Assembly: GCA_964016885.1 (NCBI GenBank) | Contig: OZ024741.1 | Location: 409,510,001-409,574,000, forward strand | From: Eledone cirrhosa | Lineage: Eukaryota | Reading direction: 5' to 3' | DNA length: 64,000 nucleotides | Shown: positions 7,601-62,967 of the stretch, piece by piece | Layout: each line of letters starts with the position of its first letter | Position numbering within the stretch: position 1 is the stretch's first letter | Made by a program: the position numbers and the translations under genes | Notes under the pieces: model-generated | Database searches by the model: none | Told to the model about the DNA's origin: nothing | What the model saw: only the letters and a program-made list of their open reading frames with translations

Positions 7601-7824
7601 ACTTCGTTAGCGCAACCCTTTAAGGTGCCTACATTTATGGTACCAACTCTGAAGTTTTGGATTGCGTTTGGAGGGTGGGGGCGGTGGGGGGCGGGGGGAG
7701 ATGGGGTTATGTTAGCCGTCCGCGGTCGAAACAAAGAGGAGTGCTCGCATTCTCGTCCACGAGGTGAATTTGTCTTTATCTTTGGCATTGTCGCTGAGCG
7801 TCCAGATTTTTCTCTCTCTTCCAC
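4682..7824 (-). pseudogene. RTE-a ORF: APE endonuclease + RT + PHD finger, frameshifted by an internal deletion near 6280
   Basis: Motifs GTINVGTL, QETRW, SAYAPQ, GDLNGHVG, SQHRL, FVDLEKAFD, QGSVLSP and YADD. About 19 codons are missing relative to RTE-b between PIEGPAV and PSEIVAE. Confidence 0.92.
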
Positions 7825-11500: not shown

Positions 11501-12502
11501 GATCTCAGGAAGCTTAATTAAGAATGTAGGATTCACATGCAGCAGCTGTGCTGAAACAGCAAGCAAACAGCCACAGGAAACAAGTACCACCAATCTCTGG
11601 GAGGGCCCTGTAGAAACAGTAGACAGCTTCTGCTATCTAGCTTCTGCTATTCGGTGACCGAATTAGCAACGGAGGTGGGTGCTCAGAAAGTACAATAACT
11701 AGGGTAAGAACGGGATGGAAGAAGTTTAGGGAACTACTACCACTGCTAGCTGCAAAAGGCTTCTCCCTCAGAATGAAAGGCAGACTGTATGATGCGTGTA
11801 TCCGAACAGCAATGTTGCATGGTAGTGAGACCTGGGCGCTGAAGGTGGAAGACTTACGTAGATTAGAGAGAAACGAAGCCTGCATGCTCCGATGGATGTG
11901 TAACAGTAATATACGTGAACGACAAAGCATAAAGGAATTGAGAGAGAGACTGAGCATAAGAGGAATCAAATGCTGCGTGCAGGAGAGGCGGTTACGCTGG
12001 TATGGACATGTGATGCGTATGAAGGATGACAGCTGCATAAAAAGGTGCAGAGCACTAGAAGTTGATGGAAACCGCGGAGTGGGGAGACCCAAGATGACTT
12101 GGGATGAGGTGATAAAAGCCGACCTTACCCAACTACACCTCTCAAAGACAATGACACACGACCGTGACTTCTGGCGTCACGCAGTAATACAGGGTACCCG
12201 ACCTCCCATGGGTACATGCTGAAGCATATAAACAATATGCCCCCACTCCCCCCACCGCAAAAAAGCACCCAGCCCACACTGTAAAGTGGACGTGTAGGCG
12301 CCACGAAAAAGCACCCAGCACTCACTGTAAATGAGGTTGGTGTTAGGAAGGGCATCCAGCTGTAGAAATCAAGCCAGATCAGTTCCTGTATGAGCAAGGC
12401 ATGGTCAGCCGACCAGACACTGCCCACAACAGGACAACCCGTCTAACCCATGCTAGCGTGGAAGAACGGACGTAAAACGGTGATGATGATGATGATGATG
12501 AT
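8560..12502 (+). mobile_element. near full-length RTE-clade LINE (family RTE-b)
   Basis: APE-RT ORF from 9090, 3' UTR at 12223-12480 and (TGA)n tail at 12481-12502. The 5' boundary is approximate. Confidence 0.93.
9090..12222 (+). pseudogene. RTE-b ORF: APE + RT + PHD finger, single frameshift near 11640
   Basis: An 855-aa ORF followed by a 149-aa ORF. The break is a short tandem duplication (agcttctgctatct-agcttctgctatt), where the copies at 13340 and 63211 read agcttctgctacctagg. Confidence 0.93.
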
Positions 12503-19951: not shown

Positions 19952-20197
19952 CTGGGGTTATATAATCAATATCAATAGGTCACACTACTTACAAGGATCC
20001 CTGGGGTTATATAATCAATATCAATAGGTCACACTACTTACAAGGATTCCTGGGGTTATATAATCAATATCAATAGGTCACACTACTTACAAGGATCCCT
20101 GGGGTTATATAATCAATATCAATAGGTCACACTACTTACAAGGATTCCTGGGGTTATATAATCAATATCAATAGGTCACACTACTTGCAAGGATTCC
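19952..20197. repeat. 49-bp minisatellite, 5 copies
   Basis: ctggggttatataatcaatatcaataggtcacactacttacaaggat(c/t)c at 19952, 20001, 20050, 20099 and 20148. Confidence 0.95.
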
Positions 20198-20309
20198 CGT
20201 CACTCTCTGTCACCATCCAATTCTATTGTTCGTCATATTTGGTATATTATACACAAGGATATAATTTACTCCCATTTTTTTAGAATCAAAAACAAGGGTT
20301 GAAATATTC

Positions 20310-22897
20310 ACATAGACATGGCTGTACTCTGGGGTTACATTATACATAGACATGGCTGTACTCTGGTGTTACAATATACACAGACATGGCTGTACTCTGG
20401 GGTTATATTATACACAGACATGGCTGTACTCTGGGGTTATATTATACACAGACATGGCTGTACTCTGGGGTTACATTATACACAGACATGGCTGTACTCT
20501 GGGGTTATATTATACACAGACATGGCTGTACTCTGGGGTTACATTATACACAGACATGGCTGTACTCTGGGGTTATATTATACATAGACATGGCTGTACT
20601 CTGGGGTTACATTATACACAGACATGGCTGTACTCTGGGGTTACATTATACACAGACATGGCTGTACTCTGGGGTTACATTATACACAGACATGGCTGTA
20701 CTCTGGGGTTATATTATACACAGACATGGCTGTACTCTGGGGTTACATTATACATAGACATGGCTGTACTCTGGGGTTATATTATACACAGACATGGCTG
20801 TACTCTGGTGTTACATTATACATAGACATGGCTGTACTCTGGGGTTATATTATACACAGACATGGCTGTACTCTGGTGTTACATTATACATAGACATGGC
20901 TGTACTCTGGGGTTATATTATACATAGACATGGCTGTACTCTGGGGTTATATTATACACAGACATGGCTGTACTCTGGTGTTACATTATACACAGACATG
21001 GCTGTACTCTGGGGTTATATTATACACAGACATGGCTGTACTCTGGGGTTATATTATACACAGACATGGCTGTACTCTGGTGTTACATTATACATAGACA
21101 TGGCTGTACTCTGGGGTTATATTATACATAGACATGGCTGTACTCTGGGGTTACATTATACACAGACATGGCTGTACTCTGGTGTTACATTATACACAGA
21201 CATGGCTGTACTCTGGGGTTACATTATACACAGACATGGCTGTACTCTGGGGTTACATTATACACAGACATGGCTGTACTCTGGGGTTATATTATACATA
21301 GACATGGCTGTACTCTGGGGTTACATTATACACAGACATGGCTGTACTCTGGGGTTACATTATACACAGAGATGGCTGTACTCTGGGGTTATATTATACA
21401 CAGACATGGCTGTACTCTGGGGTTATATTATACATAGACATGGCTGTACTCTGGGGTTATATTATACACAGACATGGCTGTACTCTTGGGTTATATTATA
21501 CACAGACATGGCTGTACTCTGGTGTTACATTATACACAGACATGGCTGTACTCTGGTGTTACATTATACACAGACATGGCTGTACTCTGGGGTTATATTA
21601 TACATAGACATGGCTGTACTCTGGGGTTATATTATACATAGACATGGCTGTACTCTGGGGTTACATTATACACAGACATGGCTGTACTCTGGGGTTATAT
21701 TATACACAGACATGGCTGTACTCTGGGGTTATATTATACACAGACATGGCTGTACTCTGGGGTTACATTATACACAGACATGGCTGTACTCTGGGGTTAT
21801 ATTATACATAGACATGGCTGTACTCTGGGGTTATATTATACATAGACATGGCTGTACTCTGGGGTTACATTATACACAGACATGGCTGTACTCTGGGGTT
21901 ACATTATACACAGACATGGCTGTACTCTGGGGTTATATTATACATAGACATGGCTGTACTCTGGGGTTACATTATACACAGACATGGCTGTACTCTGGGG
22001 TTATATTATACACAGACATGGCTGTACTCTGGGGTTACATTATACACAGACATGGCTGTACTCTGGGGTTACATTATACACAGACATGGCTGTACTCTGG
22101 GGTTATATTATACATAGACATGGCTGTACTCTGGGGTTATATTATACATAGACATGGCTGTACTCTGGGGTTACATTATACACAGACATGGCTGTACTCT
22201 GGGGTTATATTATACATAGACATGGCTGTACTCTGGGGTTATATTATACATAGACATGGCTGTACTCTGGGGTTACATTATACACAGACATGGCTGTACT
22301 CTGGGGTTATATTATACACAGACATGGCTGTACTCTGGGGTTATATTATACATAGACATGGCTGTACTCTGGGGTTACATTATACACAGACATGGCTGTA
22401 CTCTGGGGTTATATTATACACAGACATGACTGTACTCTGGGGTTACATTATACACAGACATGGCTGTACTCTGGGGTTATATTATACATAGACATGGCTG
22501 TACTCTGGGGTTATATTATACACAGACATGGCTGTACTCTGGGGTTACATTATACACAGACATGGCTGTACTCTGGGGTTATATTATACATAGACATGGC
22601 TGTACTCTGGGGTTATATTATACACAGACATGGCTGTACTCTGTGGTTATATTATACATAGACATGGCTGTACTCTGGGGTTATATTATACATAGACATG
22701 GCTGTACTCTGGGGTTATATTATACACAGACATGGCTGTACTCTGTGGTTATATTATACATAGACATGGCTGTACTCTGGTGTTACATTATACATAGACA
22801 TGGCTGTACTCTGGGGTTATATTATACACAGACATGGCTGTACTCTGGGGTTATATTATACATAGACATGGCTGTACTCTGGGGTTATATTATACAC
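20310..22897. repeat. 34-bp minisatellite, ~76 copies (last heparanase intron)
   Basis: ca(c/t)agacatggctgtactctgg(g/t)gtta(c/t)attata. Confidence 0.98.
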
Positions 22898-22980
22898 AAG
22901 GATGTAGTTTACTCCTATTTCTAAGCTTCAGAAACAGGTGGTATAATACTTAAAGAAATATGGTAGACTGTATGACTTAC

Positions 22981-23127: not shown

Positions 23128-23156
23128 CTATGGATATAAACAACATATATTGATGG

Positions 23157-23163
23157 TAGATAG

Positions 23164-23199
<36 letters not shown>

Positions 23200-23200
23200 A
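23157..23200. repeat. (GATA)n tract at the left edge of the Tx1 array; further tracts at 28776-28792, 31903-31912, 33746-33775, 39113-39173, 40185-40216 and a remnant at 41248-41252
   Basis: Directly visible at every Tx1 junction. Confidence 0.95.
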
Positions 23201-26200
23201 TTTCTTTATTAGCCACAAGGGCGCACAAGAAAAGGGGACAAAACAAAGACATATGCCGGAGATTTTACATACAATCGTGTAAAAAAATATAAAACAAACA
23301 ATTATAACAATCGAAATCCTCAATAGGGGGGGAGGCGCCACAAATGAGTTATTTAATACCCCGTCGATAGAACAACCCTCAACTTCAGGAACGTGTTGTG
23401 CAAGTGCTCCTTTCTTCATTTTGCTCTCTTCAACCTACAGGTTTATATACAGAGAAGGCCCAATCGCTCGGGCCATTTTCGCTTCATTCACCCACCTTAC
23501 AGTAAATTTACTGGAGTGCAGTGCCTCTCTTTCCACTCTGATTCTCCTTCTAAAGTGGTATCTAAAGAAGGGAATTAGTTGTTGTCTGGAGAGAAAGGCA
23601 TTTCTCCTCAGTCCTCTCAATCCCGTCCACCATATAACCTCTTCCACCAAAGCCACAATACAGAGGAAAACCGCCTCTCTTTCATTTTGGAAAGAGTCTG
23701 GCGGTTTGATCCTTACTATGGACTCGGCAGTCAACTGGATTTGTTCCATACGCGACAGCAGTTGTTCTGCGTAGTTCCACAGGTCGGTTACGCCCGGGTA
23801 GTGTACAATTGCGTGCAGGACGGTTTCAATGTCCTGCACGCATCTTGGACACATCCTCTTGGAAGGATCCCTGCCGGGGCGTCCATGCCTGTAGATCTTG
23901 TCACAAACTGGTAGAGCTCCTCGGGAGCACTGCCAGGACAGGGACCTCTGGAAGTTGTCTATAGGTCCCGGGCAGAAAGTCCTACCACACAGACTGGTGA
24001 GTTTGTCGTCTTCGATGCCTAGAGTCTCTCTGAGCACGTCATTGCCCTTGTGACGTACTAACCCTCTATAGAATGTCGAAGTGGAGTCTCCACTGATTGC
24101 CATACCCGCTTGACAGAGGACTATGAGCGCCTGAGCGCATTCAATGTGCCAGGTGCCCATCTTCTTCGGTCTTCGCTTGACCCAGGACTGCAGCTCCGTC
24201 AGCGAGACAAGTTGCGGGAAGGTCTGTCTCACAAACGGTGGCCACACCGGTTGGGGGTCGGTGAGGAATACCTGGAGATGCCGTAGCCTCAGCTCATCAT
24301 CAGCCACAGCATTCCCAGCCCTCCGTTGGAAGGGTGCTGACAGCAGACGGATCTCCTCACCAGTGGAGCCTGCTTCTTCCAAAGGAACTGGAAGAGCATG
24401 CGTTCCATCTTGGTGAGGTGTTCACGGGGTCAAGGCACGACGGTCAAGTGGTAGTAGATGACAGACGCTATGAAAGTGTTCGCCACCTCCGCTCGACCTT
24501 TCAAAGACAGTTTGCACTCTGCCCACTTCTGGGTGAGCGCAAATACCTTGGCCGTGACCTCGTTCCAGTTTTTCTCTACCTGGAGGTCCGGACCAAACCA
24601 GACCCCGAGCAATTTCATTGGTCTGCCTGTCCAGCGTCCGACGACGCTGCCGGACGGCATCGGCTTGCCTCTCCACGTTCTGAGTTGCAAACCGACAGAC
24701 TTGTCTGGGTTCAGTTTTGCTCCTGTGAGCCTTTCGTATTCCTGCAGTAAGTTGCTGATCTCCCCGATTTCGGAGGCTTCCGAGACCATTACCGTTACGT
24801 TGTCCCCATAAGCCGACGCTGCTTTCCGCAGTTCCGGTTCCAACGGAATGCCCTGCAGCAGCTCCAGCTTCCGCAGTAGTGGCTCTAGAGTCCGTATGTA
24901 CGGAATGGAGGGGAGAGGGCATCCCTGTCGGATGGAACAGCAGGTGTTGGTGTGCATTGCCTCTGAAGACGGGTCCGAAACTGGCCGCCTTGAGAACCGC
25001 TTCCAAGTATCGATGGTCGACCCTATCGAATGCCTTAGACTGAACTAAATTGATCAGAGCCCCACTGAAGCCGGGTTTACACCCCACCATCTCTATGATG
25101 TATCGCAAGAGGTGGAGGTTGTCGTGTATGGACCTGGTCGGCATTGCACACGTTTCCGCTTTCCCTACCAGGTTCTCGACTACAAGCGCCAGCCTCGTTG
25201 CCAACACCTTGGCCAAAATCTTTAACTCTGTGTTGAGCAGAGTTATGGGCCTAAAGTTGTTTAGTTCCTCCCCCTTGTTCCCGTCTATCCTGATCAGCGT
25301 TACTACGCCCCTGCCTGCAGAACTGGGAATTCTCCCGTTCTGCTCCCAGTTGCAGTAGACGGCCTCAGGGTGCCAGAGAACAAGTCCAGCATGCCTATGT
25401 TAAACTCATATGGTAGACCATCTAGACCGGGTGATTTGCGTTTCCCGCAGCGGCCCAGAGTGTCCTGTATCTCAGTGGCTGTGATCGGTCTTTCGCAGAA
25501 CTCGGCATCCATGCTCGACAGACGCAGCAGGCCGTCGAGGTATGAACCGAAGACCATTGCCCCGTTCGATGCACCGCCACTCTGCCCGAACAGTTGTGCA
25601 AAGTGCCGCTGAAAGGCCACGCACATCCGCTTGGGGTGAACTTGTTGCCACTTTCAAAGAGAAAATCGTGAACTTGTTGCCACTTTTCGCCTCTACCACT
25701 TGGGCCCAGCTAACAGATTTCGCTCCCTTGTTTCCTAGAGCACGTGATTTACTTCTGACCACACACCCTTCGTGTTTCACGTCGAAGAACTGGTTCAGTG
25801 CCATTCTCATTGCTAGCACTCTAGCTGCGTTGCCACTCCTAAATGCCTCCTCTACCTTGGCTACTAGTTCCGTTTCTGTTTTGTTTCTCTCTAAGGCTAA
25901 CTCTCTGCTAAAGTCTATCGACTCTACTCTAATTGCTCTCTTGAGGGAGTACCACCATCTGTCAATTGTTGCTTAACTAATCTACTTATCAGTTCACTGT
26001 AGGCTTTACGTGTCGGTAGCAACACGTTCAGCTTCCAATATCCAGGTCCCTGTCTATGTATTCTATCACGGTTGACTATGCAGATGACTAGTTTGTGGTC
26101 TGAATAGGCAACCATGTGCATTTGTGGACAGCTTAACATCTTGTCCTTCTCTGTAAAGAAAACCCTATCTAGATACGATGTAGATGTCCCGCTGCGGTTT

Positions 26201-28776
26201 TCCCACGTCCACTGTGGTGCAGTCGGGAAATCTAGTCGATATCTATCGGCCAGTTGGAATTGGCCGATTAGATTTTTGAGGCTGTTGCACCCCCCTCTAC
26301 TGGGACATGAACCTACATAGTCCCATCGTGCATCTAGGATACCATTCCAGTCCCCCACTAAAAGTAAGGAGCGAGACGTTCCGAGAAAAGACTCTAGACG
26401 TTTAAAGAAGTCTGGCCGCGATTGCCCAGTCGAAGCATAAAAGGCCACCAGTCTGAAGGCTCCACCTCCAATACTGTTCACGTCTAGGACTACCAGTCTA
26501 TCCTCCGGGTCCAAGTGTACTTGCTGTACTTTGATGTCCAGGTTTTTCCGAAACATGACAGCCACTCCCCCTCCACCTCCTGGCTGACAGAGAGATGCGT
26601 AGATCTCAAAGTCATTGAAGATGGGGGTTAGTTGCTGCCTGTTGTGGATCCTGGACTCGGTGATAGCTATCACATCCATACCATGTGACTTAAGGTCGTT
26701 TAAAAGTTGGCCCCGTTTCCAGGGCATCCCTAGGCCACGCACATTCACACTTCCAACTCGTAAACTTGCCATGTTGGTGGAGAAGAGTTGGCGAAAAAGG
26801 ACGAAAAGGTGCACTTACTTTTCATTTCCTGGAGATCGGGTTGTTCAATCTCCATTTGGGTGCTGGAGGGGGTGTTGGGTGGGGTGAACAGGACACGGTT
26901 AATGGGCTTTTGACAGGGGTTGCCAATGTCCTGCAAAAATTTATTCTTCAGGTCACTATAGGTCTCCATAGAAACCCTTATAAGTTTAAGGTGTGGAGAC
27001 GATTCTGCTTTAACGAAAGTTTTGCCCTCTGTCTCACCTTGGGGTTTTTGGAGATGACCTCCATCAAACTCTTGTTGTTTGTGTTGGTGTATGCGTATTG
27101 TTGTTTGTGTTTTTGTTGTGTTGTTATTGTTTGTTGATCGTTCGGGAGTTTTCTTTTTATGCTGGGTGCTTGTTTGGGTTGGTGTTGATTTTGCTGGTAG
27201 GGGGATGTTTGACTGTGGTGTTGTTTGTGTCTGTAGTTGTGTGTTGGTGTTGGTGATTGGAGTTTTGGGGGTTTGTGGTGTCTATTTTTTTGCTTTGGGG
27301 ATTTTTGAGGCTCTCCTTCCTCTTCACTTAAAGGAGAAGCAGCCTTATCTGTTGATGAATAATCATCGTCAGGAGTGTGGGGTAGGGGTATGTTGTGTGG
27401 TGGTGGTGTTTCAGTGTGTGTGTGTTTGTGGTAGTGTTTGATGGAGTGGGATGGGGTGGGGCTGTGTACTTCAGGGGTGTTGTCTGTGTTGTTGTTGGTT
27501 GAGTGGCCATTTGTTTTGGTCTGTTTGCTTGTTTCGTGTGTTATTGTTGTGGTGGTGGTAGTTTTGGTGTTGATAACAGTATTTTCTTTTGGATCGTTTT
27601 GTTTGAGTATGTTTGTAAAGGGCAGGAGGCCTTTAGATGTGTGGTACTATTACAAGGAAAGCAATGTGGGTTTTCATCCTTCAACCGAAATGTTAATGTA
27701 GTTGTTGTTGTCGACTAGGAACTTTTCGGGTATTTTGGAGATTCTCTCCGACCTCATCTACACCAGAATCTCCAAATTGGTACCCGCCCACCTTTGTCTG
27801 GTCGACTTTCTGACCGAAAGAATTACATCATTTTCTAGCTCCACGAACCCCGCCAAAATCCACCAGATGTTGATGATGGTGGTATACTATTTATTTTTAT
27901 TTTTTGTGTTCTTTTTCCCATGTAAGTAGGGAAAAAGGTATGCATTTTCAAAATGATTGGCTGCACAGAATCCTTCTGTGCGAGGTGCTCGTTTTAAAAA
28001 AATTACCGAAATACTTCCATACAGTCTGACCCTTTGCAGAAAATCAATATTTTCCAAAGCCTCCTTCAAGGTGGCTTCAATTTCCCCTTGACTAAGGAAA
28101 ACTGGTTTTCTTGTATTATTCAAGACAGTTCTGAAGGCTACCGTCCTTCGAACTGTTTCATGTTTAATTTCCAAGGGTGAGTTTATATGAAATCCACCCC
28201 TTTCTTCAAATGTTATAAATTGTTTCGCATCAGACATCTGTTTTGAATTGTTGATGTCCAACTATTTATATTGTTTTGTTTATCACAGTCTGTGCGAATG
28301 TTGTTTTTTCAGTTTCGTTGTTGTTGGTTTTTCTTGTATAGTTGTGTTAATTGTTTCAATTTCTGCATTTTCTGTATTTTCTGTATTTTTTGGTGTCTGT
28401 TGTGGGCTGTTATTTTCATCTTTTGTTGTGCAAATATCCATTTCTTTACGAAATAAAGTTTTGTTGTTGTTTGTCTCCATAGGTACTTCTATGGAAGTAG
28501 AGGGAGATATAACACTTATATCTGCCTCTTTCCCTGTCTTCTCGCTGTCAACGCTGCCTAAGTCACACATTGTTACAGTTAGGAAAATTTTAAAACTTCT
28601 CAATAATTTTTAAAATTAAATTTTGTCCCACATGGGCGAACACTGAGATTACCACCCAGCTGACAATTCAGCCTGGGTGTTAATCTATCAATCAATATAA
28701 ATTTGCACACAATAAACTCTGTTTTTGTATAGAAAATTTACAAAAACTTACTGACGATCTATCGCACGTCTGGTGG
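23201..28776 (-). mobile_element. Tx1-clade LINE copy A (family 1), full-length, decayed
   Basis: ORF1 fragments with a CCHC knuckle (CFPCNSTTHLKASC) and a T/P/N-rich tail. ORF2 starts at 26772 (APE: GSVNVRGL, GDWNGILD, YLDR, SDHKLV; RT; C-terminal CPRC..ETVLH) and has many frameshifts. Confidence 0.92.
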
Positions 28777-28793
28777 ATAGATAGATAGATATA

Positions 28794-31700
28794 TTTCTTT
28801 TATTTGCCACCAGGGCATCAAAAGTGGGACAAGTACAAAGGGGGGAGTTTACACAAAAAGGCGTCCTCAATAGGGAGGAGGCAATAACAAAATATAAAAA
28901 TAAAATAAGATATAACAAAAAATAAAATTTTTAACAAAATCCTCAATAGAGAGGAGGCGCCTTGGGGGGTCGCACACACCCCCGAAAAAAGTGTGCAACC
29001 CTTCTCCTCAGGAGCACAGAGAAGGGGTGCTCCCTTGGTCTTTCATCTTCCTCACCTATAGTCTGATGTAGAGTGAAGGCCCATTCACACGGGCCATTCT
29101 CGCCACTTTCACCCATCTTTCATAGAAACGGCTGGGGTGCAGCACCTCTCTCTCCATCCTGATCCTTCTTCCGAAATGATATCGGAAGAAACGGACCAGT
29201 TGTTGGCCAGAGAGAAAGGTGTCCGACCTCAGTCCTTTCAGACGCGTCCACCATACAACCTCTATCGCCATGGCTATTACGCACAGAAACACCGCCTCTG
29301 CTTCATCTTTGAAGGGGGGAGGCGGCTTGATCATTACAATAGACTCGGTGGTCAACCGGATCGGTCCCACCCTTGACAGCAGTTGTTCGACATAGCCCCA
29401 CAGATCGGCTACGCCCGAGCAGTGTACTAATGCGTGTGCAACGGTTTCCTCGTCGCACACGCATCTGGGACAGATCTTTTTGGCGGGGTCCCTACCCGGG
29501 CGCCCGTGTCTGTAGAGCCTTTCTCGAACGGGTAAAGCCCCTCGGTAGCACTGCCAGGCCAGGGACTTCTGGAAGTTGTCCATAGGTCCCGGGCTGAATG
29601 TCCTACCGAACAGGCTGGCCAGTTCGTCCTCCTCCATGTCTAGGGCTTCTCCGAGGGCGTCGTCGCACCTGCTGCGTACCAGCCCTCTATAGAATGTTGC
29701 GGTGGAGTCTCCACTGATAACCGGATCCGCCTGCCAGAGGGCGGTGAGCGCCTGGGCACACTCAGTGTGCCAGGCGCCCAGTTTTCTCGGTCTTTGCTTG
29801 ACCCAGGATTGCAGCTCGGTGAGTGAGACGAGTCTGGGAAAGGTTCGTCTCACAAACGAGGCCCACACCGGTTGTCCGGTGAGGAATACGTAGAGGTGCC
29901 GTAGCCTTAATGCGTGTTTACGCATCATTAGCCACGGCATCCCCATCCCTCCTTTCGAAGGGTGTTGACAGCAGATGGATCTCCTCACCATAGGAGCCCG
30001 CCTCTTCCAAAGGAATTGGAAGAGCGCGCGCTCCATCTTGGTGAGGGTTTCCCTTGGGCAGGGCACTACGGTCAGGCGGTAGTAGATGACGGACGCTATG
30101 TAGGTGTTCGCCACCTCCGCCCGACCTTTCAGGGATAGTTTGCAACTGGCCCACTTCTGGGTCAGTGCAAACACCCTGTTCGTAACCTCCGCCCAGTTTT
30201 TCTCCACCTGGAGGTCCGGTCCGAACCAGACCCCGAGCAACTTCACCGGGCCCTCCGTCCAGCGTCCGACGACGCTATCGGAGGGCATCGGTCTGCCTCT
30301 CCACGTGCCGAGTTGCAAACCGATCGACTTGTCCCGGTTCAGCTTAGCCCCTGTGAACTTTTCGTACTCCTCCAGTAAGGTGCCGACCGCCTCGATTTCG
30401 GAGGCCGTCGACACCATTACTGTCACGTCATCGGCGTAGGCCGACACCGCTTTCCGCAATCCCGGTTCCAAAGGGATGCCCTGCAACAACTCCAACTTCC
30501 GCAGTAGTGGCTCGAGAGTCAACACATACAGAAGGGAGGAGAGAGGGCACCCTTGTCGGATGGACCGCGCGATTTTGAACGGCTCCGAGAGGTAGCCGTT
30601 CACCTTGACCCTAGAGCAGATGCGGCTGCTGTGCATAGCAGTGATCCAGCCCCTGAAAACGGGTCCGAAGCCTGCCGCCGCTAGCACCGCATCCAGGTAA
30701 CCATGGTCGACCCTATCGAACGCCTTAGATTGATCCAAGTTGATCAGAGCCCCACCAATGCCGGGTTCGTTCCCAACCCTCTCTATGATGTATCGCATGA
30801 GGTGGAGGTTGTCATGGATGGACCTGGACGGGATAGCGCATGTCTGCGCATCTCCCACCAGGTTGCCCACGACAAGCGCCAACCTCTTTGCTAGCACCTT
30901 GGCCAAAATCTGTAACTCTGTATTTAGCAGTGTTATGGGCCTGAAGTTACTTATTTCGTCCCCCTTGTTCTCGTCCTTCCTCACTAGCGTGACTACGCCC
31001 TTGGTCACAGTACAGGGAATTCTCCCGTTCTGTTGCCAGTTGCAGTAGACCGCCTCGAGGAGATCGGCGAACAAGTCCGGCATAGCTAGATATAATTCGT
31101 AAGGAAGACCATCGAGACCCGGGGATTTGCGTTTGCCGCATTGGCTCAGCACGTCCTCTATCTCAGCGGCCGAAATCGGCTCCTCGCAGGACTTCGCCTC
31201 CCTGTCCGAGAGACGCGGCAGGCCGTCGAGGTATGGACCGAAGTCCACGTTCCCAACCGGCTCCCCGCCCCTCCCGAACAGTCGGGCAAAGTGCCTTTGA
31301 AAGGCCTCACACATCTGCTTAGGCTCAAGAATCGCCCGTCCATCCAGGTCTCGCAAAGACCGGATGGTGGATTTAGTTCCACTGTTGGCCTCTGTCACGC
31401 GGGCCCAGCTAACAGCTTTGGTCCCCTCGTTCCCTAGAGCACGTATTTTACTTCGGACAACGCAGCCTTCGTGCTTCGCGTCGAAAAACTGGCTCAAAGC
31501 CGTTCTCGACGCTAGCACTCTGGCCACGTCGCCGCTTCTAATTGCCTCTTCTACTCTATCTATTAGCTCCCTTTCCTTCCTATTCCTATCCGCAGCTAGA
31601 ACCTTACTAAATTCTATCGAGACTACTCTAATCTCTCTCTTTAGAGATACCCACCACCTGCTGTTGACGATCGCTCCAGTCAACCGTTCCTTAACTAACG

Positions 31701-31905
31701 TACTAATCCGATTCCTGTAGGCTCTACTTGCCGGCAAGGACAAGTTGAGCTTCCAGTAACCGGGGCCCTGTCTATGAGTTCTGTCAAGGTTGACCATGCA
31801 GGTCACTAATTTGTGGTCTGAATAGCCAACCATGCGCATTTTTGGACAACTTAAAAAGTCCTTATCCTTAATTCTAACTAAGAACCTATCTAGGTACGAC
31901 CTAGA
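28794..31905 (-). mobile_element. Tx1 copy B (family 2), 5'-truncated, young
   Basis: Uninterrupted 927-aa ORF. The 3' end is AATAAA followed by (TATC)n. Confidence 0.95.
29056..31839 (-). CDS. Tx1 ORF2 (end of APE + RT + C-terminal zinc finger), open but lacking the N-terminus
   Basis: SDHKLV, KSPGLDGLPYE, NFRPITLLN, LDQSKAFDRV, RQGCPLS, AYADD and CPRC..ETVAHALVHC. Confidence 0.9.
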   Translation of the reverse strand: MRMVGYSDHKLVTCMVNLDRTHRQGPGYWKLNLSLPASRAYRNRISTLVKERLTGAIVNSRWWVSLKREIRVVSIEFSKVLAADRNRKERELIDRVEEAIRSGDVARVLASRTALSQFFDAKHEGCVVRSKIRALGNEGTKAVSWARVTEANSGTKSTIRSLRDLDGRAILEPKQMCEAFQRHFARLFGRGGEPVGNVDFGPYLDGLPRLSDREAKSCEEPISAAEIEDVLSQCGKRKSPGLDGLPYELYLAMPDLFADLLEAVYCNWQQNGRIPCTVTKGVVTLVRKDENKGDEISNFRPITLLNTELQILAKVLAKRLALVVGNLVGDAQTCAIPSRSIHDNLHLMRYIIERVGNEPGIGGALINLDQSKAFDRVDHGYLDAVLAAAGFGPVFRGWITAMHSSRICSRVKVNGYLSEPFKIARSIRQGCPLSSLLYVLTLEPLLRKLELLQGIPLEPGLRKAVSAYADDVTVMVSTASEIEAVGTLLEEYEKFTGAKLNRDKSIGLQLGTWRGRPMPSDSVVGRWTEGPVKLLGVWFGPDLQVEKNWAEVTNRVFALTQKWASCKLSLKGRAEVANTYIASVIYYRLTVVPCPRETLTKMERALFQFLWKRRAPMVRRSICCQHPSKGGMGMPWLMMRKHALRLRHLYVFLTGQPVWASFVRRTFPRLVSLTELQSWVKQRPRKLGAWHTECAQALTALWQADPVISGDSTATFYRGLVRSRCDDALGEALDMEEDELASLFGRTFSPGPMDNFQKSLAWQCYRGALPVRERLYRHGRPGRDPAKKICPRCVCDEETVAHALVHCSGVADLWGYVEQLLSRVGPIRLTTESIVMIKPPPPFKDEAEAVFLCVIAMAIEVVWWTRLKGLRSDTFLSGQQLVRFFRYHFGRRIRMEREVLHPSRFYERWVKVARMARVNGPSLYIRL

Positions 31906-31913
31906 TAGATATA

Positions 31914-33746
31914 TTTCTTTTATTTGCCACTAGGGCATCAAAAGTGGGACAAGTACAAAGGGGGGAGTTTACACAAAAAGGCGTCCTCAATAAGGAGGAG
32001 GCAATAACAAAATATAAAAATAAAATAAGATATAACAAAAAATAAAATTTTTAACAAAATCCTCAATAGAGAGGAGGCGCCTTGGGGGGTCGCACACACC
32101 CCCGAAAAAAGTGTGCAACCCTTCTCCTCAGGAGCACAGAGAAGGGGTGCTCCCTTGGTCTTTCATCTTCCTCACCTATAGTCTGATGTAGAGTGAAGGC
32201 CCATTCACACGGGCCATTCTCGCCACTTTCACCCATCTTTCATAGAAACGGCTGGGGTGCAGCACCTCTCTCTCCATCCTGATCCTTCTTCCGAAATGAT
32301 ATCAGAAGAAACGGACCAGTTGTTGGCCAGAGAGAAAGGTGCCCGACCTCAGTCCTTTCAGACGCGTCCACCATACAACCTCTTTCGCCATGGCTATTAC
32401 GCACAGAAACACCGCCTCTGCTTCATCTTTGAAGGGGGGAGGCGGCTTGATCATTACAATAGACTCGGTGGTCAACCGGATCGGTCCCACCCTTGACAGC
32501 AGTTGTTCGACATAGCCCCACAGATCGGCTACGCCCGAGCAGTGTACTAATGCGTGTGCAACGGTTTCCTCGTCGCACACGCATCTGGGACAGATCTTTT
32601 TGGCGGGGTCCCTACCCGGGCGCCCGTGTCTGTAGAGCCTTTCTCGAACGGGTAAAGCCCCTCGGTAGCACTGCCAGGCCAGGGACTTCTGGAAGTTGTC
32701 CATAGGTCCCGGGCTGAATGTCCTACCGAACAGGCTGGCAGTTCGTCCTCCTCCATGTCTAGGGCTTCTCCGAGGGCGTCGTCGCACCTGCTGCGCACCA
32801 GCCCTCTATAGAATGTTGCGGTGGAGTCTCCACTGATAACCGGATCCGCCTGCCAGAGGGCGGTGAGCGCCTGGGCACACTCAGTGTGCCAGGCGCCCAG
32901 TTTTCTCGGTCTTTGCTTGACCCAGGATTGCAGCTCGGTGAGTGAGACGAGTCTGGGAAAGGTTCGTCTCACAAACGAGGCCCACACCGGTTGTCCGGTG
33001 AGGAATACGTAGAGGTGCCGTAGCCTTAATGCGTGTTTACGCATCATTAGCCACGGCATCCCCATCCCTCCTTTCGAAGGGTGTTGACTGCAGATGGATC
33101 TCCTCACCATAGGAGCCCGCCTCTTCCAAAGGAATTGGAAGAGCGCGCGCTCCATCTTGGTGAGGGTTTCCCTTGGGCAGGGCACTACGGTCAGGCGGTA
33201 GTAGATGACGGACGCTATGTAGGTGTTCGCCACCTCCGCCCGACCTTTCAGGGATAGTTTGCAACTGGCCCACTTCTGGGTCAGTGCAAACACCCTGTTC
33301 GTAACCTCCGCCCAGTTTTTCTCCACCTGGAGGTCCGGTCCGAACCAGACCCCGAGCAACTTCACCGGGCCCTCCGTCCAGCGTCCGACGACGCTATCGG
33401 AGGGCATCGGTCTGCCCCTCCACGTGCCGAGTTGCAAACCGATCGACTTGTCCCGGTTCAGCTTAGCCCCTGTGAACTTTTCGTACTCCTCCAGTAAGGT
33501 GCCGACCACCTCGATTTCGGAGGCCGTCGACACCATTACTGTCACGTCATCGGCGTAGGCCGACACCGCTTTCCGCAATCCCGGTTCCAAAGGGATGCCC
33601 TGCAACAACTCCAACTTCCGCAGTAGTGGCTCGAGAGTCAACACATACAGAAGGGAGGAGAGAGGGCACCCTTGTCGGATGGACCGCGCGATTTTGAACG
33701 GCTCCGAGAGGTAGCCGTTCACCTTGACCCTAGAGCAGATGCGGCT
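31914..33746 (-). mobile_element. Tx1 copy C (family 2), 5'-truncated
   Basis: Nearly identical to 28794-30627, with a 1-bp deletion near 32738 and a CGA>TGA stop near 32303. Confidence 0.95.
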
Positions 33747-33776
33747 AGATAGATAGATAGATAGATAGATAGATAT

Positions 33777-36700
33777 GTTTCTTTATTTGCCACAGGGGCG
33801 TACAAAAATGGAACATTACAAGACGTGACGGCGGGGGTTTTAAATAAAATCTTTAACAATGATAAATAACAATAAACTATATATAATAAAATAACAATTG
33901 AAGTCCCCAATAGGGGGTAACGTTACTGCAGGGTTGTTTTACACCCCGTGGATAGAACAACCCTCAACACCAGGAGCACGTTTTGTAGGTGTTCCCGTCT
34001 TCCCTATGTTTATCTTCCTCAACCTACAGGTTTATATACAGAGAAGGCCCATTCACCCGATCAATTTTCGCCACATTCGCCCACCGCTCAGTGAATTTAC
34101 TGGAGTGTAACACCTCTCTCTCCACTTTTACCTTCCTTCTGAAGTGGTACTTAAAGAAGGGGATGAGTTGTCCGGAGAGAAGGGTGCTTGCCCTCAGTCC
34201 CTTTAACCTCGTCCACCATATTACCTCTTTCGCCATAGCCACCAGACAGAGGAAGACCGCCTCTCCTTCGTTCTTAAATGAAGGTGGCGGGGTGATCCTC
34301 ACGATGGACTCGGCTGACAACTGGATGTGTCCCACATGTGACAGCAGCTGTTCTACATAATTCCACAGGTTGGTCACCCCTGGGCACTGAACGATTGCGT
34401 GCAGAATGGTTTCGATGTCCTGCTTGCATCTTGGACAGGTCCTTTTGGCAAGATCTCTGCCAGGGCGTCCGTGCCTGTAGATTTTGTCTCGAACTGGTAG
34501 AGCTTCTCGGTAGCACTGCCAGGCGAGAGACCTCTGGAAGTTATCCATAGGTTCTGGAGGGAAAGTCCTCCCGAACACACTGGTCAGTTCATCCTCCTCG
34601 ATGCCTAGAGTTTCCCCGAGAACGTTGTCGCACCTATCCTTCACTAATCCCCTATAGAATGTCGAAGTGGAGTCTCCGCTGATTGCCGTTTCCGCTTGGT
34701 AGAGGGCTGTGAGTGCCTGTAGGCACTCGAGGTGCCAGGCACCCATTTTCATCTTCGCTTGACCCAGGACTGCAGCTCTGTTAGTGAGACGAGTTGTGGA
34801 AGAGCTTGTCTCACAAACGACATCTACACCGGTTCACCGGTCAGGAACCACCCTGAGATGACGTAGCCTCAGCGCATGTTTTTTGCGCATCATCAACCAT
34901 GGCATGCCCAGCCCTCCGTTAGAAGGGTGTTGACAGCAGATGGATCTCCTCACCAATGGAGCCTGTTTCTTCCAGAGGAACTTGAAGAGTAGGCGTTCCA
35001 TTTTGGTAAGGTATTTGCGGGGGCAAGGCACAACTGTCAAGCGGTAGTAGATGATGGATGCTATGTAAGTGTTCGCCACCTCTGCTCGACCTTTCAAGGA
35101 GAGTTTGCACTCAGCCCACTTCTGGGTGAGCGCAAACACCTTCGCCGTGACCGCGTTCCAGTTCTTGTCCACCTGGAGGTCTGGACCAAACCAGACCCCG
35201 AGCAATTTCACTGGTCCTTCCATCCCGCGTCCAACGACACTATTGGAAGGCATGGGTTTGCCTCTCCATGTGCCGAGTTGCAAACCGACAGACTTGTTTG
35301 GGTTTATTCTTGCTTCTGTCAACGTTTCGTATTCCTGTAATAGGTTGCCGATTACCCCGATGTCCGAGGTTTTCGACACCATTACGGTTATGTCGTCGGC
35401 ATAGGCCGACGCTGCTTTCTGCAGTCCTGGTTCAATCGGGATGCCCTGCAACAGCTCCAACTTCCGCAGTAATGGCTCGACAGTCAGTACATACAGAATG
35501 GAGGAGAGATGGCATCCCTGACGGATGGAACGCATGATTTGGAATGGTTCTGATAGGTAGTCATTCACCTTGACTGCCGAGAAGATGTTGCTGTGCATGC
35601 CAGCGATCCAGCCTCTGAAGACGAGACCGAAGCCAGCCGCATTGAGAACCGCTTCCAAGTATTGATGGTCGATCGTATCGAACGCCTTAGACTGATCTAA
35701 ATTGATCAGTGCCCCACCGAAGCAAGATTTACACCCTACCCTCTCTATGATGTATCGCAAGAGGTGGAGGTTGTCGTGTATGGACCTGGTCGGCATTGCA
35801 CACGTTGCCGCTTTCCCTACCAGGTTCTCGACTACAAGCGCCAGCCTCGTTGCCAACACCTTGGCCAAAATCTTTAACTCTGTGTTGAGCAGAGTTATGG
35901 GCCTAAAGTTGTTTAGTTCCTCCCCCTTGTTCCCGTCTATCCTGATCAGCGTTACTACGCCCCTGCCTGCAGAACTGGGAATTCTCCCGTTCTGCTCCCA
36001 GTTGCAGTAGACGGCCTCGAGGATGCCAGAGAACAAGTCCAGCATGCCTATGTTAAACTCATATGGTAGACCATCTAGACCGGGTGATTTGCGTTTCCCG
36101 CAGCGGCCCAGAGTGTCCCGTAAAGCTACTTCCTTGCTAAATGCTATCGATTCTATTCTAATTGCTCTCTTGAGAGAGCTCCACCACCTGTTGTTGACGA
36201 TCACCCCATCAACTGGCACTTAACTAAGGTGCTAATCCGTTTACTGTAGGCCTTACGCGCCGGGAGCGACATGTTTAGCTTCCAGTATCCGGGTCCCTGT
36301 CTATGTGTTCTATCAAGGTTGACTACGCAGGTGACTAATTTGTGGTCTGAATAGGCAACCATGTGCATTTGTGGATAGCTTAATGTTTCCTTATCATTCT
36401 GTCTAATTAAAAATCTATCTAAATACGATCTAGAAGACCCAGTGTGGTTGCTCCACGTCCACAGTGGTGTACTTCGGAAGTCTAGTCGATATCTATCAGC
36501 CAGTTGGAATTGGCTGATGAGATTTGTTCAGGCTATTACACCCCCCTCTATTATCACAAGCTCCTACATAGTCCCAACATGCGTCTAAGATGCCATTCCA
36601 GTCCCCCGCTAACACTAAGGAACAAGACGCTCCCAGGAATGGCTCCAGATGCTTGAAGAACTCAGGTCGCGATGTCCCAGTCGGGGCATATACGGCCACC

Positions 36701-39113
36701 AGTCTGAAAGCTCCACCTTCACTACCATTCACATCCAGGACCACCAGGCTGCCCTCCGGGTCCAAGTGAATTGTCTGTATTTTGAGATCCAAGTTTTTTC
36801 GAAACAGAACAGCAACTCCCCCTCCACCTCCTGGCTGACTGAGAGATGCGTTGATCTCAAAATCATCGATCATGGGGGTTAGCTGCTGCTTGTCGTGAAT
36901 CCTAGACTTGGTGATGGCTATCACATCTATACAATGTGACCTGAGATCATTTAAAAGCTGGCCTTGTTTCCAGGACATGCCCAGGCCATGTACATTCAAA
37001 CATCCAGCTTGTATAGTCGCCATGTTGGTGAAGAAGAGTTAAGGAGAGAAAAGGCAGGAACACTTACCTTTTCATTTCCTGGAGGTCGGGTTGTTCAATC
37101 TCCATGTCCAGATTGGGGGTGTTTGGGGAGGAAGGGAATCCTTTTAGCAGGACACGGTTAAGGGGCTTTTGGCAAGGGGGCCCCACATCATGTGGGAAGT
37201 TCTCTTTTAAAGTTTCATACTGTAGGGTTGTTACCCTGATAAGTTTGAGGTTTGAGGGTGGGTCGTTGGTGGGGAAGGTTTTCCCTTCCATTTGTATTGT
37301 GGGGTTCTTTCAGACAGTTTCCACCAGTTCTTTGTTTCTTGTTTTTATGTATGTGTAATGTGTTTTGTTTTTTATGTGTACTGTTTCTGTTTGTAGTTTT
37401 CTTTTTGTGGTTGGGGTTTGTGATTGTGGTGGTGTGGGTGTTTGTTTTGTTGGTGGTGATTGTGTTGTTGGTGTGTTTGTCGTTTGTGGCGGTGTGTTTA
37501 TGGGGGGGGGGGGGTGTTTCTGTAGATGTTTTTGTGACTTTTTTGTCTCTTTTTTGTTTTTTGGATTTCCTCTTCATTCTCACTTGGAGATGTAGAGGTT
37601 CCCGTGTCTGAGACTTCTGAATCAGGGGTAGATGGGAGGGGTATGTTGTGTGGTGGAGTGTTTGTGCAGGTGTTTGGGGAAGTATTTGACAGGGAGGTAG
37701 GAGGCAATGGAATGCTTTTCAGTGGGATTTTGTGTGTGTGGTTGTCTCTGGTCTGTGGTGGAGTGGGAGTGGATGTTGCAGGTTTTTGTGTTGTGTTTGA
37801 TTTGGGATGTTGATGTTGGGGTTTTGGTGTTGGTAATAACACCTTGTTTGTCCTAGGTTTGTTTAAGAGAGGGCAAAAGGCCTTTAAGTGTGTGGTTTTC
37901 CCACACTAATGGCACTGAGGTCTTTTCCCCTCCACTAAAATGGAGATGACATCTTCCTCAAGGACGATCCTGTCCGGTATTTTCTCAACTCTCTCTGGCC
38001 TCATTTGTACCAGAACCTCGATGCTGGTTCCAAACCAGTTATTCCGGTTTGTTCTGTCTACAGATAGGAGGGTGTCTTCATCCTTCTTCAGGATGTAGCA
38101 TAGGATCCACCGTATGTTGACCTCTGCTGGGATTCTGGTTATTTTTATTTTGTATGATCTTCTTCCCATGTATGTGAGGAAGAAGATGTGTTGATCCGTT
38201 TTTATTGGATGCACCGAGTGTTTTTGAGCCAGAGTTTCACTCTTAAAGAGCACTGACACACTTCCATACTGTTTAGCTCTTTGGAGGTATGCCACGTCTG
38301 GCTTGATATCTTTTAGTGCAGCATCAATAGTGCTTGTTGGGAGCGTTATGGGCTTTTTGGTAGTGATGTCAACTGTTCTATAAATTAGCTTCTTTTTCTG
38401 TGTCATTTCTCTTACTTGTGGAGGTATGTGTATGCGTGGGGTGTCTCCCTCAAACATCACATAGGTGGAAGCTTCTTCCAAATATTGGGACTTTTGGGAA
38501 ATGTCCATGGGGTAATACTTAAAATCCTGTTGCTTAGCAACGGTTGTTGCAAATGAAATTTTGTTGTTGCTGTTGGTGGTGATGATGGTCTCATGTGTTG
38601 TGTTGCCACTTTGTTGTGTTGTTGTTGTTCTCATTTATTGTGTTGTTGTTGTTGCTTGTGGTGGTGTTAGTATTTGCTACATATACTTCCTTCTGTGTGT
38701 GGATACATGTGACGTTTGTGACATCAGGCGTGTTCAGTTGCTTACAAGCAACTGAAGCTTGTTCCCCTTCTAAATGTTGAGGCGATAATATTGGCATTCC
38801 TTTGTCCATGTCTGCTACTACCTGCTGGTCAAGTAGGCATGGCTTTCCCTTCCCATCTTCTTGTATTGACAAAGTAGGTGCCTTTGCTTCGGCCATTTTT
38901 TTTAAATTGAAGTGTTTTGCAAAGATATTTTAGAAAATATGTTGGATGTTTTTGCCCTAAAGGGCACGATATTTTGGGAGACTGACCAGATCAAAATTTG
39001 ACCTGTTAGTCCCTCTACAAATTGGTATAAAAATAAAAGTTCACAATGACGAATTTCTAAAGAAATTTAAACAAAACTTACCAAGCAAGTTTAACACGTG
39101 TGTCCATCGTGGA
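33777..39113 (-). mobile_element. Tx1 copy D (family 3), full-length, decayed and chimeric
   Basis: ORF1 spans ~38896-37064, with CH*CGKTTHLKAFC (stop inside the knuckle). ORF2 starts at 37023 and has frameshifts and a deletion near 36120. Confidence 0.92.
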
Positions 39114-39123
39114 ATAGATAGAT

Positions 39124-39172
<49 letters not shown>

Positions 39173-39173
<1 letters not shown>

Positions 39174-40184
39174 TTCTTTATTAGCCACAAGGGCGCAACA
39201 AGAAAGGGGACAATACAAAGACATGCCGGGGATTTTACATACAGTCGTGTAAAAAATATAAAAACAAACAATGTCAACAATCGAAATCCCCAATAGGGGG
39301 GAGGCGCCACAAATGTGTTGTTTAATACCCCGTCGATAGAACAACCCTCAACTCAAGGAGCGTGTTGTGCAAGTGGTCCTTTCTTCCTTTTGCTCTCTTC
39401 CTCAACCTACAGGCTTATAAACAGAGAAGGCCCAATCACTCGGGCCATTTTCGCTTCATTCACCCACCTTTCAGTAAATTTACTGGGGTGCAGTGCCTCT
39501 CTCTCCACCCTGATTCTCCTTCTAAAATGATACTTAAAGAATGGAATCAATTGTTGTCCGGAGAGAAAGGCATCTGTCCTCAGTCCTCTCAACCTCGTCC
39601 ACCATATAACTTCTTTCACCATAGCCACCGTACAGAGGAAAACCGCCTCTCTTTCGTTTTTGAAAGAGTCTGGCGGTTTGATCCTTACTATGGACTCGGC
39701 AGTCAACTGTATTTGTCCCATACGCGACAGCAGTTGTTCTGCATAGTTCCACAGGTCGCTTACGCCCGGGCAGTGTACAATTGCGTGCAGAACTGTTTCA
39801 ATGTCCTGCGCACATCTTGGACACGTCCTCTTGGAAGGATCCCTGCCAGGGCGTCCGTGCCTGTAGATCTTGTCACGAACCGGTAGAGCTCCTCGGTAGC
39901 ACTGCCAGGCCAGGGACCTCTGGAAGTTGTCCATAGGTCCCAGGCGGAAAGTCCTACCAAACATACTGGTGAGCTCATCGTCTTCGACGCCCAGAGTCTC
40001 TCCGAGCACGTCGTCGCCCTTGTAACGTACAATCCCTCTATAGAATGTCGAAGTGGAGTCTCCACTGATTGCTGCGCCCGCTTGCCAGAGGACTGTGAGC
40101 GCCTGAGCGCATTCAATGTGCCAGGCGCCCATCGTTTTCGGTCTTTTCTTCACCCAGGACTGCAGCTCCGTTAGCGAGACGAGC
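39173..40184 (-). mobile_element. Tx1 copy E (family 1), 5'-truncated, ~1.0 kb
   Basis: The 3' UTR and ORF2 C-terminus match copy A. Confidence 0.93.
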
Positions 40185-40216
<32 letters not shown>

Positions 40217-41245
40217 TCTTTCTTAATTTGCCACAGGGGCGTACAAAAATGGGACATTACAAGACGTGACGGCAGGGGTTTTACACAAAAATCATATAAC
40301 TTTAACATTAATAAATAACAATAAACTATATATAATAAAATAACAATTGAAGTCCCCAATAGGGGGGAATGTTACTGCAGAGTTGTTTTACACCCCGTGG
40401 ATAGAACAACCCTTAAAACCAGGAGCACATTTTTTAGGTGTTCCCGTCCTCCCTCTGTTTATTTTCCTCAACCTACAGGTTTATATAGAGAAAGCCCATT
40501 CACTCGGGCCATTTTCGCCACATTCACCCACCTTTCAGCAAATTTACTGGAGTGTAACACCTCTCTCTCCACTCTCACCTTCCTTCTGAAGTGGTACTTA
40601 AAGAAGGGGATGAGTTGTCCGGAGAGAAAGGTGTTTGCCCTCAGTCCTTTTAACCTCGTCCACCATATTACCTCTTTCGCCATAGCCACCAGACAGAGGA
40701 AGACCGCCTCTCCTTCATTCTTAAATGAAGGCAGAGGGGTGATCCTCACGATGGACTCGGCTGACAACTGGATGTGTCCTACACGTGACAGTAGTTGTTC
40801 GACATAGTTCCACAGGTTGGTCACCCCAGGGCACTGAAAAATTGTGTGCAGAACGGTTTCGATGTCCTGCTCGCATCTTGGACAGGTCCTTTTGGCAGGA
40901 TCTCTGCCAGGGCGTCCGTGCCTGTAGATTTTGTCTCGAACTGGTAGAGCTTCTCGGTAGCACTGCCAGGCCAGAGACCTCTGGAAGTTATCCATAGGTT
41001 CTGGACGGAAAGTCCTCTCGAACAGACTGGTCAGTTCATCCTCCTCGATGCCTTGAGTCTCCCAGAGAACATCGTCGCACTTATTCTCCATAGAATGTCG
41101 AAGTGGAGTCTCCGCTGATTGCCGTTTCCGCTCGGTAGGGGGCTGTGAGTGCCTGAACGCACTTGAGGTGCCAGGCACCCATTTTCGGTCTTTGCTTGAC
41201 CCAGGACTGCAGCTCCGATAACGAGACAAGTGGTGGAAAAGCTTG
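40217..41245 (-). mobile_element. Tx1 copy F (family 3), 5'-truncated, ~1.0 kb
   Basis: The 3' UTR and ORF2 C-terminus match copy D. Confidence 0.93.
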
Positions 41246-41295
41246 ACAGATACACACACACGCACATTGTATGGATATGTCTGTGTATGTATGTT

Positions 41296-41684
41296 TGCAT
41301 GAATGTAGCGAAACATACAGTCTGTAGGCACCTCTAACAAAAATACACCCCCGTCCCACTACCCCTATCTGCACCCCCATCCACACCACCCCTTTCGATG
41401 TAAAGTTATGTTGGTACCACAACATCCAGTCCGAAATAAATGAGGTCGTGTAGGTATCACGACAAAAAAACACACAGTCCACTCTGTAATGTGGCCGTGT
41501 AGGTAACATGGTAAAAACCTCCCAGTCCACACTAAATGTGGTTGGTGTTAGGAAGGGCATCCAGCTGTAGAAAACCCGCCACACAGTCCTATACGAGCAA
41601 GACAACCAATCTTGCCTCATGTGGGAAAATTCCTGTCCAAACCCATGCAAGCGTGGAAGATGGACGTTAAACGATGATGATGAT
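41296..41684 (+). mobile_element. RTE-a 3'-UTR-only copy
   Basis: Inverse homolog of ~4300-4670, ending ggacgttaaacgatgatgatgat. Confidence 0.88.
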
Positions 41685-61900: not shown

Positions 61901-62967
61901 TATACACATCTACTATATATATATATATACATTGTATACACATCTACTATATATATATTGTATACACACCTACTATATACATACATTGTATACACATCTA
62001 CTATATATACATTGTATACACATCTACTATATATATACATTGTATACACATCTACTATATATATACATCTACTATATATATACATTGTATACACATCTAC
62101 TATATATATATACATTGTATACACATCTACTATATATATACATTGTATACACTATTACTATATATATATACATTGTATACACATCTACTATATATATACA
62201 TTGTATACACATCTACTATATATACATTGTATACACATCTACTATATATATATATATTGTATACACATCTACTATATATATATACATTGTATACACATCT
62301 ACTATATATATACATTATATACACATCTACTATATATATATATACATTGTATACACATCTACTATATATATACATTCTATACACATCTACTATATATATA
62401 CATTGTATACACATCTACTATATATATACATTGTATACACATCTACTATATACATACATTGTATACACATCTACTATATATATACATTGTATACACATCT
62501 ACTATATATATATTGTATACACATCTACTATATATATATTGTATACACTACTATATATATATACATTGTATACACATCTACTATATATATATATACATTG
62601 TATACACATCTACTATATATATATATACATTGTATACACATCTACTATATATATATATACATTGTATACACATCTACTATATATACATTGTATACACATC
62701 TACTATATATATATATATTGTATACACATCTACTATATATATATACATTGTATACACATCCACTATATATATACATTGTATACACATCCACTATATATAT
62801 ACATTGTATACACATCTACTATATATACATTGTATACACATCCACTATATATATACATTGTATACACATCTACTATATATATACTGTATACACATCCACT
62901 ATATATATACATTGTATACACATCTACTATATATACATTGTATACACATCCACTATATATATACATT
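43951..62967. repeat. ~19-kb satellite CATTGTATACACATCTAC(TA)n, units mostly 24-32 bp, roughly 650-700 copies
   Basis: Directly visible, with degenerate units at 43951-44120. Copy number is estimated from length divided by unit size. Confidence 0.98.

Follow-up and report, generated by a model that had tools for sequence, protein, structure and literature searches.

A relocated splice-donor motif near the 5′ end of L1/Tx1-like LINEs of Eledone cirrhosa, a candidate U1-binding site

Penelope of D. virilis carries an intron of 75 bp located 46 bp from its start (described in passages of PMC2377424). It shares with Chlamys-3_cRei, and with the elements analyzed here, a short GT-AG segment near the 5′ end that is retained in genomic copies and conserved across diverged elements; those two elements differ in having a GIY-YIG endonuclease and demonstrated splicing, whereas ours are APE-type LINEs of the L1 group with a putative intron and two donor positions (passages of PMC2377424 and PMC8557442). 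A conserved leader donor in an L1-group LINE is described for human L1, where most RNA stays unspliced, mutation of the donor lowers RNA, and leader splicing leaves about 1.8% spliced copies (SpIREs) through cis preference; the same passages ascribe that donor to a RUNX3 site, whereas the one reported here is near-consensus, has been relocated and is accompanied by 0 spliced copies in about 2,800 leaders (PMC5860796, in part). Passages of PMC5580714 assign a dual role of U1 to the conserved donor of EVD and Drosophila copia, with splicing yielding a gag-only RNA and anti-termination a full-length RNA. This parallels the donor at the ORF1 end of our elements, although EVD and copia are LTR elements, with experimental proof and no leader mini-intron (same passages). 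Protection from Restrictor (ZC3H4/WDR82) likewise involves a sense, start-proximal donor with little or no splicing, and is described for host and synthetic sequences in mammalian cells, with no LINE and no mollusc in the passages of PMC12211998. Finally, the Tx1 elements Kibi and Koshi are L1-group LINEs that also insert into a short tandem repeat, their targets being (TC)n and (TTC)n in fish as opposed to (TCTA)n here, and the passages of PMC4494074 report no splice signals in them.

The literature searched, without most subscription papers and Repbase Reports, yielded no report of a leader donor in Tx1 or cephalopod LINEs. To our knowledge, LINEs are taken to be intronless and splice sites within them to be liabilities. 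The feature described below is real and conserved, and combines the known themes of a Penelope leader intron, an L1 leader donor and copia-type use of U1.

The LINE array and its leader segments

The window, meaning the whole 64,000-nt stretch analyzed from the 3.0-Gb genome, contains on the minus strand of positions 23150-41300 a tandem LINE array with (TCTA)n tracts between copies. Two L1/Tx1-like LINEs, both on the minus strand, 5′-complete and decayed, were delimited as element A (23197..28777; ORF1 ATG at 28570, ORF2 ATG at 26772, ORF2 stop at 23437-23435) and element D (33774..39114; ORF1 ATG at 38896, ORF2 ATG at 37023, ORF2 stop at 34026-34024). An earlier note on this DNA had called them full-length; both do reach the 5′ end, but their ORFs are broken and D has a deletion in ORF2. 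Minus-strand (TCTA)n target tracts lie 5′ of A (28778..28789) and of D (39115..39172), and such tracts were found at the 5′ junctions of most copies, in keeping with a target-sequence preference. Immediately upstream of A is a 5′-truncated minus-strand copy (28794..31900) of family B, a very young family in which all 40 scored matches were 100% identical across 401 nt and 8 of the 40 extended to the 5′ end. The ORF2 deletion in D is followed by a stretch that by eye is near-identical to A (window positions ~36120-35790 against 25470-25130), possibly through conversion or recombination inside the array.

ORF2 contains an APE endonuclease (PF03372) and a reverse transcriptase (PF00078), with a weak PF13966 (zf-RVT) match below cutoff; the Pfam search gave no GIY-YIG endonuclease match, which together with the APE-type endonuclease sets the elements apart from Penelope-like ones. 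Compared with solved structures, ORF2 was closest to L1 ORF2p (E 4.6e-50, against 1.8e-17 for R2), and its nearest named relative was from Argonauta hians (68% identity). These domains and the proximity to L1 ORF2p place the elements in the L1 group; the Tx1 label, taken from the earlier note, is putative and reflects resemblance. ORF1 has a visible CCHC motif and Atlas matches of 0.90-0.92 to CCHC, RRM and ZCCHC3-like clusters; the Pfam search gave no match for ORF1 and a homolog search no result.

Elsewhere in the window, a second LINE type (4682-7788 and 9090-12222), encoding a reverse transcriptase protein with a PHD-finger match, is present as several fragments in inverted and direct orientation. 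Positions 44000-62000 hold about 18 kb of AT-rich satellite with a 28-30-bp unit, and a 6,419-aa ORF across it is likely a repeat artefact. A tandem array of ~49-bp units (19990-22900) has minus-strand GTAAGT in four units, which is unrelated to the leader donor.

The leaders of both elements contain an intron-shaped minus-strand segment, at 28685..28751 in A (donor 28751-28746, AG 28686-28685) and at 39015..39081 in D (donor 39081-39076, AG 39016-39015). Each segment is 67 nt long, starts with GTAAGT, ends with TAG and is U-rich (43% in A, 51% in D), as the earlier note had described. The donor lies 27 nt (A) or 34 nt (D) downstream of the last TCTA unit. Sense-strand GTAAGT occurs four times in the 18-kb array, every time at a homologous site, namely the two leader donors and two donors at the ORF1 ends. 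The leaders of A and D are 50% identical and their segments match at 39/67 positions without gaps; the leaders of 20 families align collinearly. Because the segments are homologous, their equal length is inherited rather than an independent coincidence, and we dropped it as independent evidence. Among family A copies 25/31 kept the donor, with a modal segment of 68 nt (18 of the 25), so that the window copy is one base short of the family norm; family D kept the donor in 61/65 copies, 54 of them with a 67-nt segment.

Two hairpins follow in the minus-strand leader. Hairpin 1 of A (28646..28686), delimited by folding and by covariation over 15 families, starts at the acceptor AG and contains a branch-like YTRAC and a second YAG (28661-28660); hairpin 2 of A (28621..28640) is decayed in the window copy. 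Their counterparts in D lie at 38976..39015 (fold and family folds) and 38953..38967 (fold). In the 15 of 20 families compared, 9/15 pairs of hairpin 1 showed double changes, a level reached in 0/500 shuffles, and folding of the hairpin region gave z below -2 in 20/20 families. The second YAG is in the hairpin 1 stem and is ambiguous as an acceptor, because its pairing partners are equally invariant. An Rfam scan of four loci to E 1 gave no leader match to a ribozyme or other known RNA. A donor-masking hairpin inside the segment was considered and rejected, being supported in just 2/19 families.

Separately, C, D and B′ have a short upstream ORF that begins within a few bases of the 5′ end (in D at window positions 39110-39078; also L063, L093). 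By eye it ends at the TAA within the leader donor, a parallel to the ORF1 stop in the second donor.

Donor positions across leader families

Leaders of 20 families, whose letters are labels of the present analysis, were sampled. The first search pattern contained the donor and led to B, C, E, F and H; as a control for this bias, sampling also proceeded by ORF2 sequence, ORF1-end variants, array neighbours and donor-free leader-hairpin patterns. Donor-free queries recovered B, C, E and F again, H being known from one copy. The 20 leaders align collinearly, with a median identity of 49%, and share the order of a 5′ box, about 97 nt to hairpin 1, hairpin 2 and the ATG. A strict donor was present within the first 75 nt in 19/20 family representatives, compared with 1.9 expected from dinucleotide shuffles, and in 12/13 of the families found without the donor in the query (about 1.4 expected), so conservation in other families, on which the original proposal depended, is borne out. 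At the level of copies, 204/223 leaders had a donor match (138 early, 60 late, 6 both and 19 neither). Donors were scored by motif matching, as a simple U1-match score mis-ranked several families.

The donor is found at either of two sites. It is early, at +24 to +33, in eight families (A, B, C, D, E, F, H and J); in J, with one full copy, it reads GTAATT. All eight keep an AG, 67-69 nt on in seven and 31 nt on in H, a single copy that carries a deletion. In the seven families a consensus donor with a YAG at a workable distance, as in a U2-type intron, is therefore present, with a U-rich run before the acceptor; a YTRAY was seen by eye in B, E and F and was indistinct in A, C and D. Donor degeneracy and the branch-point consensus were taken as generally known. 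The other twelve families (K, M, N1, N2, P, Q, R, S, T, U, V and W) have no GT at the early position and carry a late donor at about +52 to +64, some 30-35 nt downstream, reading GTAAGT, GTGAGT or GTAGGT. Nine of the twelve have lost the early-position AG, which only R, V and M retain, 35 nt from the donor. The difference in AG retention (8/8 against 3/12) gave a Fisher p of 0.0014, or 0.044 after collapsing related families. Late donors are mostly followed by a YAG 49-69 nt on (mode 60), within hairpin 1 and after a YTRAC. E and K have an additional weaker GTAAGA, and the two positions are thus not strictly exclusive. Leader length is equal in both classes, and the spacing therefore needs no intron. 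The GT..AG arrangement proposed for testing is accordingly conserved among the early-donor families, which keep the AG in 8/8 cases (at 67-69 nt in seven), but not across the group, 12 of 20 families having a late donor. As judged from these alignments, the conserved feature is a donor near the start and not a 67-nt intron.

Support for the leader tree is low, and the families are related to one another; the donor position may have switched in a single event and did so at least once, with switches not countable from mosaic leaders and ORF1 types, and with B2 left out of the ORF1 tree for low coverage. Leader/ORF1 mosaics comprise an N1 leader with a C-type ORF1 and a Q leader with a P-type ORF1 (L189, L266), and the D leader resembles those of B and C while sitting on a distant ORF1 (L032), together pointing to module swapping. 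A GACGTG-like box is conserved in the first 20 nt of the leader in most families. We take it to resemble a downstream promoter element; if it is one, transcription might start inside the TCTA tract.

A conserved motif in such a leader could also act in DNA, as a promoter or transcription-factor site or as a structural element that merely looks like a donor. The box and the two hairpins show that other conserved elements share the leader, spliced copies were not found in about 2,800 leaders (see below), and the human L1 donor has been argued to lie inside a RUNX3 site (passages of PMC5860796). Such a site would nevertheless have had to move while its variants kept within donor degeneracy, to appear again at the ORF1 end, 2 kb further down, and to co-vary with an AG, and we consider this explanation improbable.

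Genomic copies and the second donor

The earlier note had spoken of a retained intron and had proposed a search for copies precisely lacking the 67 nt. With junction probes, no spliced copy was detected, whereas intact leaders numbered 77 for D and 27 for A. Pattern searches returned 766 intact donor-type leaders for B/C/D, with two variants that were both point mutants and none spliced, by a search blind to junctions with A at +3; 437 intact leaders for A/F, with 12 variants, none spliced; and 590 intact leaders for family P, with no variants. For the remaining families, a search spanning deletions of ~43-73 nt gave about 1,045 normal-length matches, a few of them spurious, and no shortened leader, four short-leader matches having been judged by eye to be the palindromic hairpin matched in antisense and therefore discarded. 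Full-length copies of young family B chosen by ORF2 sequence had intact leaders in 8/8 cases. Among the joints listed for two contig runs from one sample, none fell at the segment, a result to which we give no weight in either direction. Overall, the pattern searches detected no spliced, SpIRE-like leader in about 2,800 genomic leaders, and retention of the segment is upheld. The 95% upper bound on spliced copies is 0.17% for the B/C/D, A/F and P sets and ~0.1% for all sets, as counted with exact patterns that overlook decayed copies and with a final pattern letter D that drops about a quarter of variant matches.

Assuming cis preference, the lack of spliced copies would mean that the RNA from which ORF2 is made is essentially unspliced. 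This bears on the scheme of the earlier note, in which both proteins would be translated from spliced full-length RNA, with unspliced RNA serving as a separate transposition template. The canonical GT-AG shape in eight families is what that scheme would predict, and Penelope-like elements do retain such introns (passages of PMC8557442). It would require strict trans-selection of unspliced RNA, while L1-type cis preference predicts spliced copies, of which human L1 has about 1.8% and our elements ~0.1% at most; we regard it as very improbable.

A second donor, followed by a pyrimidine spacer, is located on the minus strand at the ORF1 end of A (26813..26818), and its counterpart in D (37062..37067) overlaps the TAA stop. 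It was found in 46/60 ORF2-start contexts, with one extra match off-site, and most of the 13 contexts without it had been fetched because they were mutated, or were truncated. The donor persists whether the site has TAA, TGA or no stop. The ORF2 stop is itself acceptor-like, in D (34022..34045, minus strand) with a pyrimidine run, TAG|GT and a purine tract, and likewise in A (23433..23456, minus strand); TAG|GT was present in 81/93 ORF2 ends. A pairing is predicted between the spacer behind the second donor and the purine tract that follows the ORF2 stop, ranking in the top ~1% of windows in 6/7 elements, the single failure having used a misplaced donor and 4/11 elements having remained unparsed. 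Two retrieved sets of non-canonical ORF1 ends, of 6 and 18, contained no ORF2-skipped copy; these sets have no counted denominator, and 3′ UTRs beginning with GTA would be missed in them.

These ends suggest a regulated leader mini-intron that would be excised along with an intron of 3.4 kb covering ORF2, giving an ORF1-only mRNA, with unspliced RNA making ORF2 and being copied in cis. Spliced copies would then not accumulate; such a strategy would resemble that of copia gag. The AG that tracks the early donor (8/8 against 3/12), the YAG ~60 nt after late donors, the ORF1-end donor kept whatever the stop and the TAG|GT at ORF2 ends all fit, and the 75-bp Penelope leader intron is spliced and required for protein output (passages of PMC2377424). 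Against this, no ORF2-skipped copy was retrieved, the second YAG sits in a stem with equally invariant partners, and the predicted pairing of spacer and ORF2 stop would account structurally for the second-donor and stop motifs. Because ORF2 is bracketed by these signals and the AG co-varies with the early donor, we keep the reading as a tentative one, clearly below even odds. It is with the same reserve that we put its wider form, an L1/Tx1-type LINE lineage with retrovirus- or copia-like splicing, in which a mini-intron whose donor and acceptor have shifted jointly from family to family, along with an ORF2-spanning intron, would yield the ORF1-only mRNA; in the genomic RNA, hairpins and long-range pairing would keep the sites locked, and only unspliced RNA would be copied.

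Some families depart from this arrangement. In P and Q (L261-L267) ORF1 reads on through the second donor, and L263 and L266 have no ORF2 ATG at the usual site but an ATA that overlaps the TAG stop of ORF1, which suggests that ORF2 begins at a non-AUG codon or by coupling. One type of ORF1-ORF2 spacer (L096, L098, L101, L202) closes with a pyrimidine tract and CAG immediately 5′ of the ORF2 ATG, and an ORF2-only message might use this as its acceptor.

A candidate U1-binding site and its meaning

The explanation that we favor, giving it about an even chance, is that the leader donor binds U1 close to the promoter and in this way protects a transcript that has no intron, without routine splicing. 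The earlier note had offered such a site as an alternative; given two donor positions and zero spliced copies, it is the better-fitting candidate when set against the spliced-mRNA scheme. U1 snRNP would bind the donor at the 5′ end of the nascent RNA, the start of transcription being taken as the element's own 5′ end, and would guard against early termination, while the RNA that is copied would remain unspliced. Pairing with U1 may protect the transcript against attenuation of the Restrictor type and against the AATAAA hexamers that precede ORF2, of which there are one to six per element in the five elements counted. With the second candidate AG hidden in the co-varying hairpin that opens at the first AG, splicing would seldom take place, and the ORF1-end donor would serve ORF2 in the same way, later being masked by pairing with the 3′ UTR.

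A donor shifted by ~30-35 nt and occurring as GTAAGT, GTGAGT or GTAGGT is as RNA pairing would allow. The U1 site gained weight from the retention counts and from the Restrictor precedent, in which a 5′ splice site in sense orientation keeps Restrictor from acting although no splicing follows (mammalian data, passages of PMC12211998); U1 at a donor also enables full-length EVD RNA (passages of PMC5580714). Against a role of U1 alone, the AG that tracks the early donor suggests an acceptor in use, and the accessibility of the early donor counts in the same direction, since no hairpin was found to block it.

Near-consensus donors have thus been kept by a LINE lineage that numbers thousands of copies and includes a very young family, and one donor has been relocated rather than lost. 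This retention and relocation suggests that, by way of U1, LINEs can pass for host mRNA, and the two natural leader classes make the idea directly testable. If the acceptors are used, the lineage would be a case of a non-LTR element with a message dedicated to ORF1.
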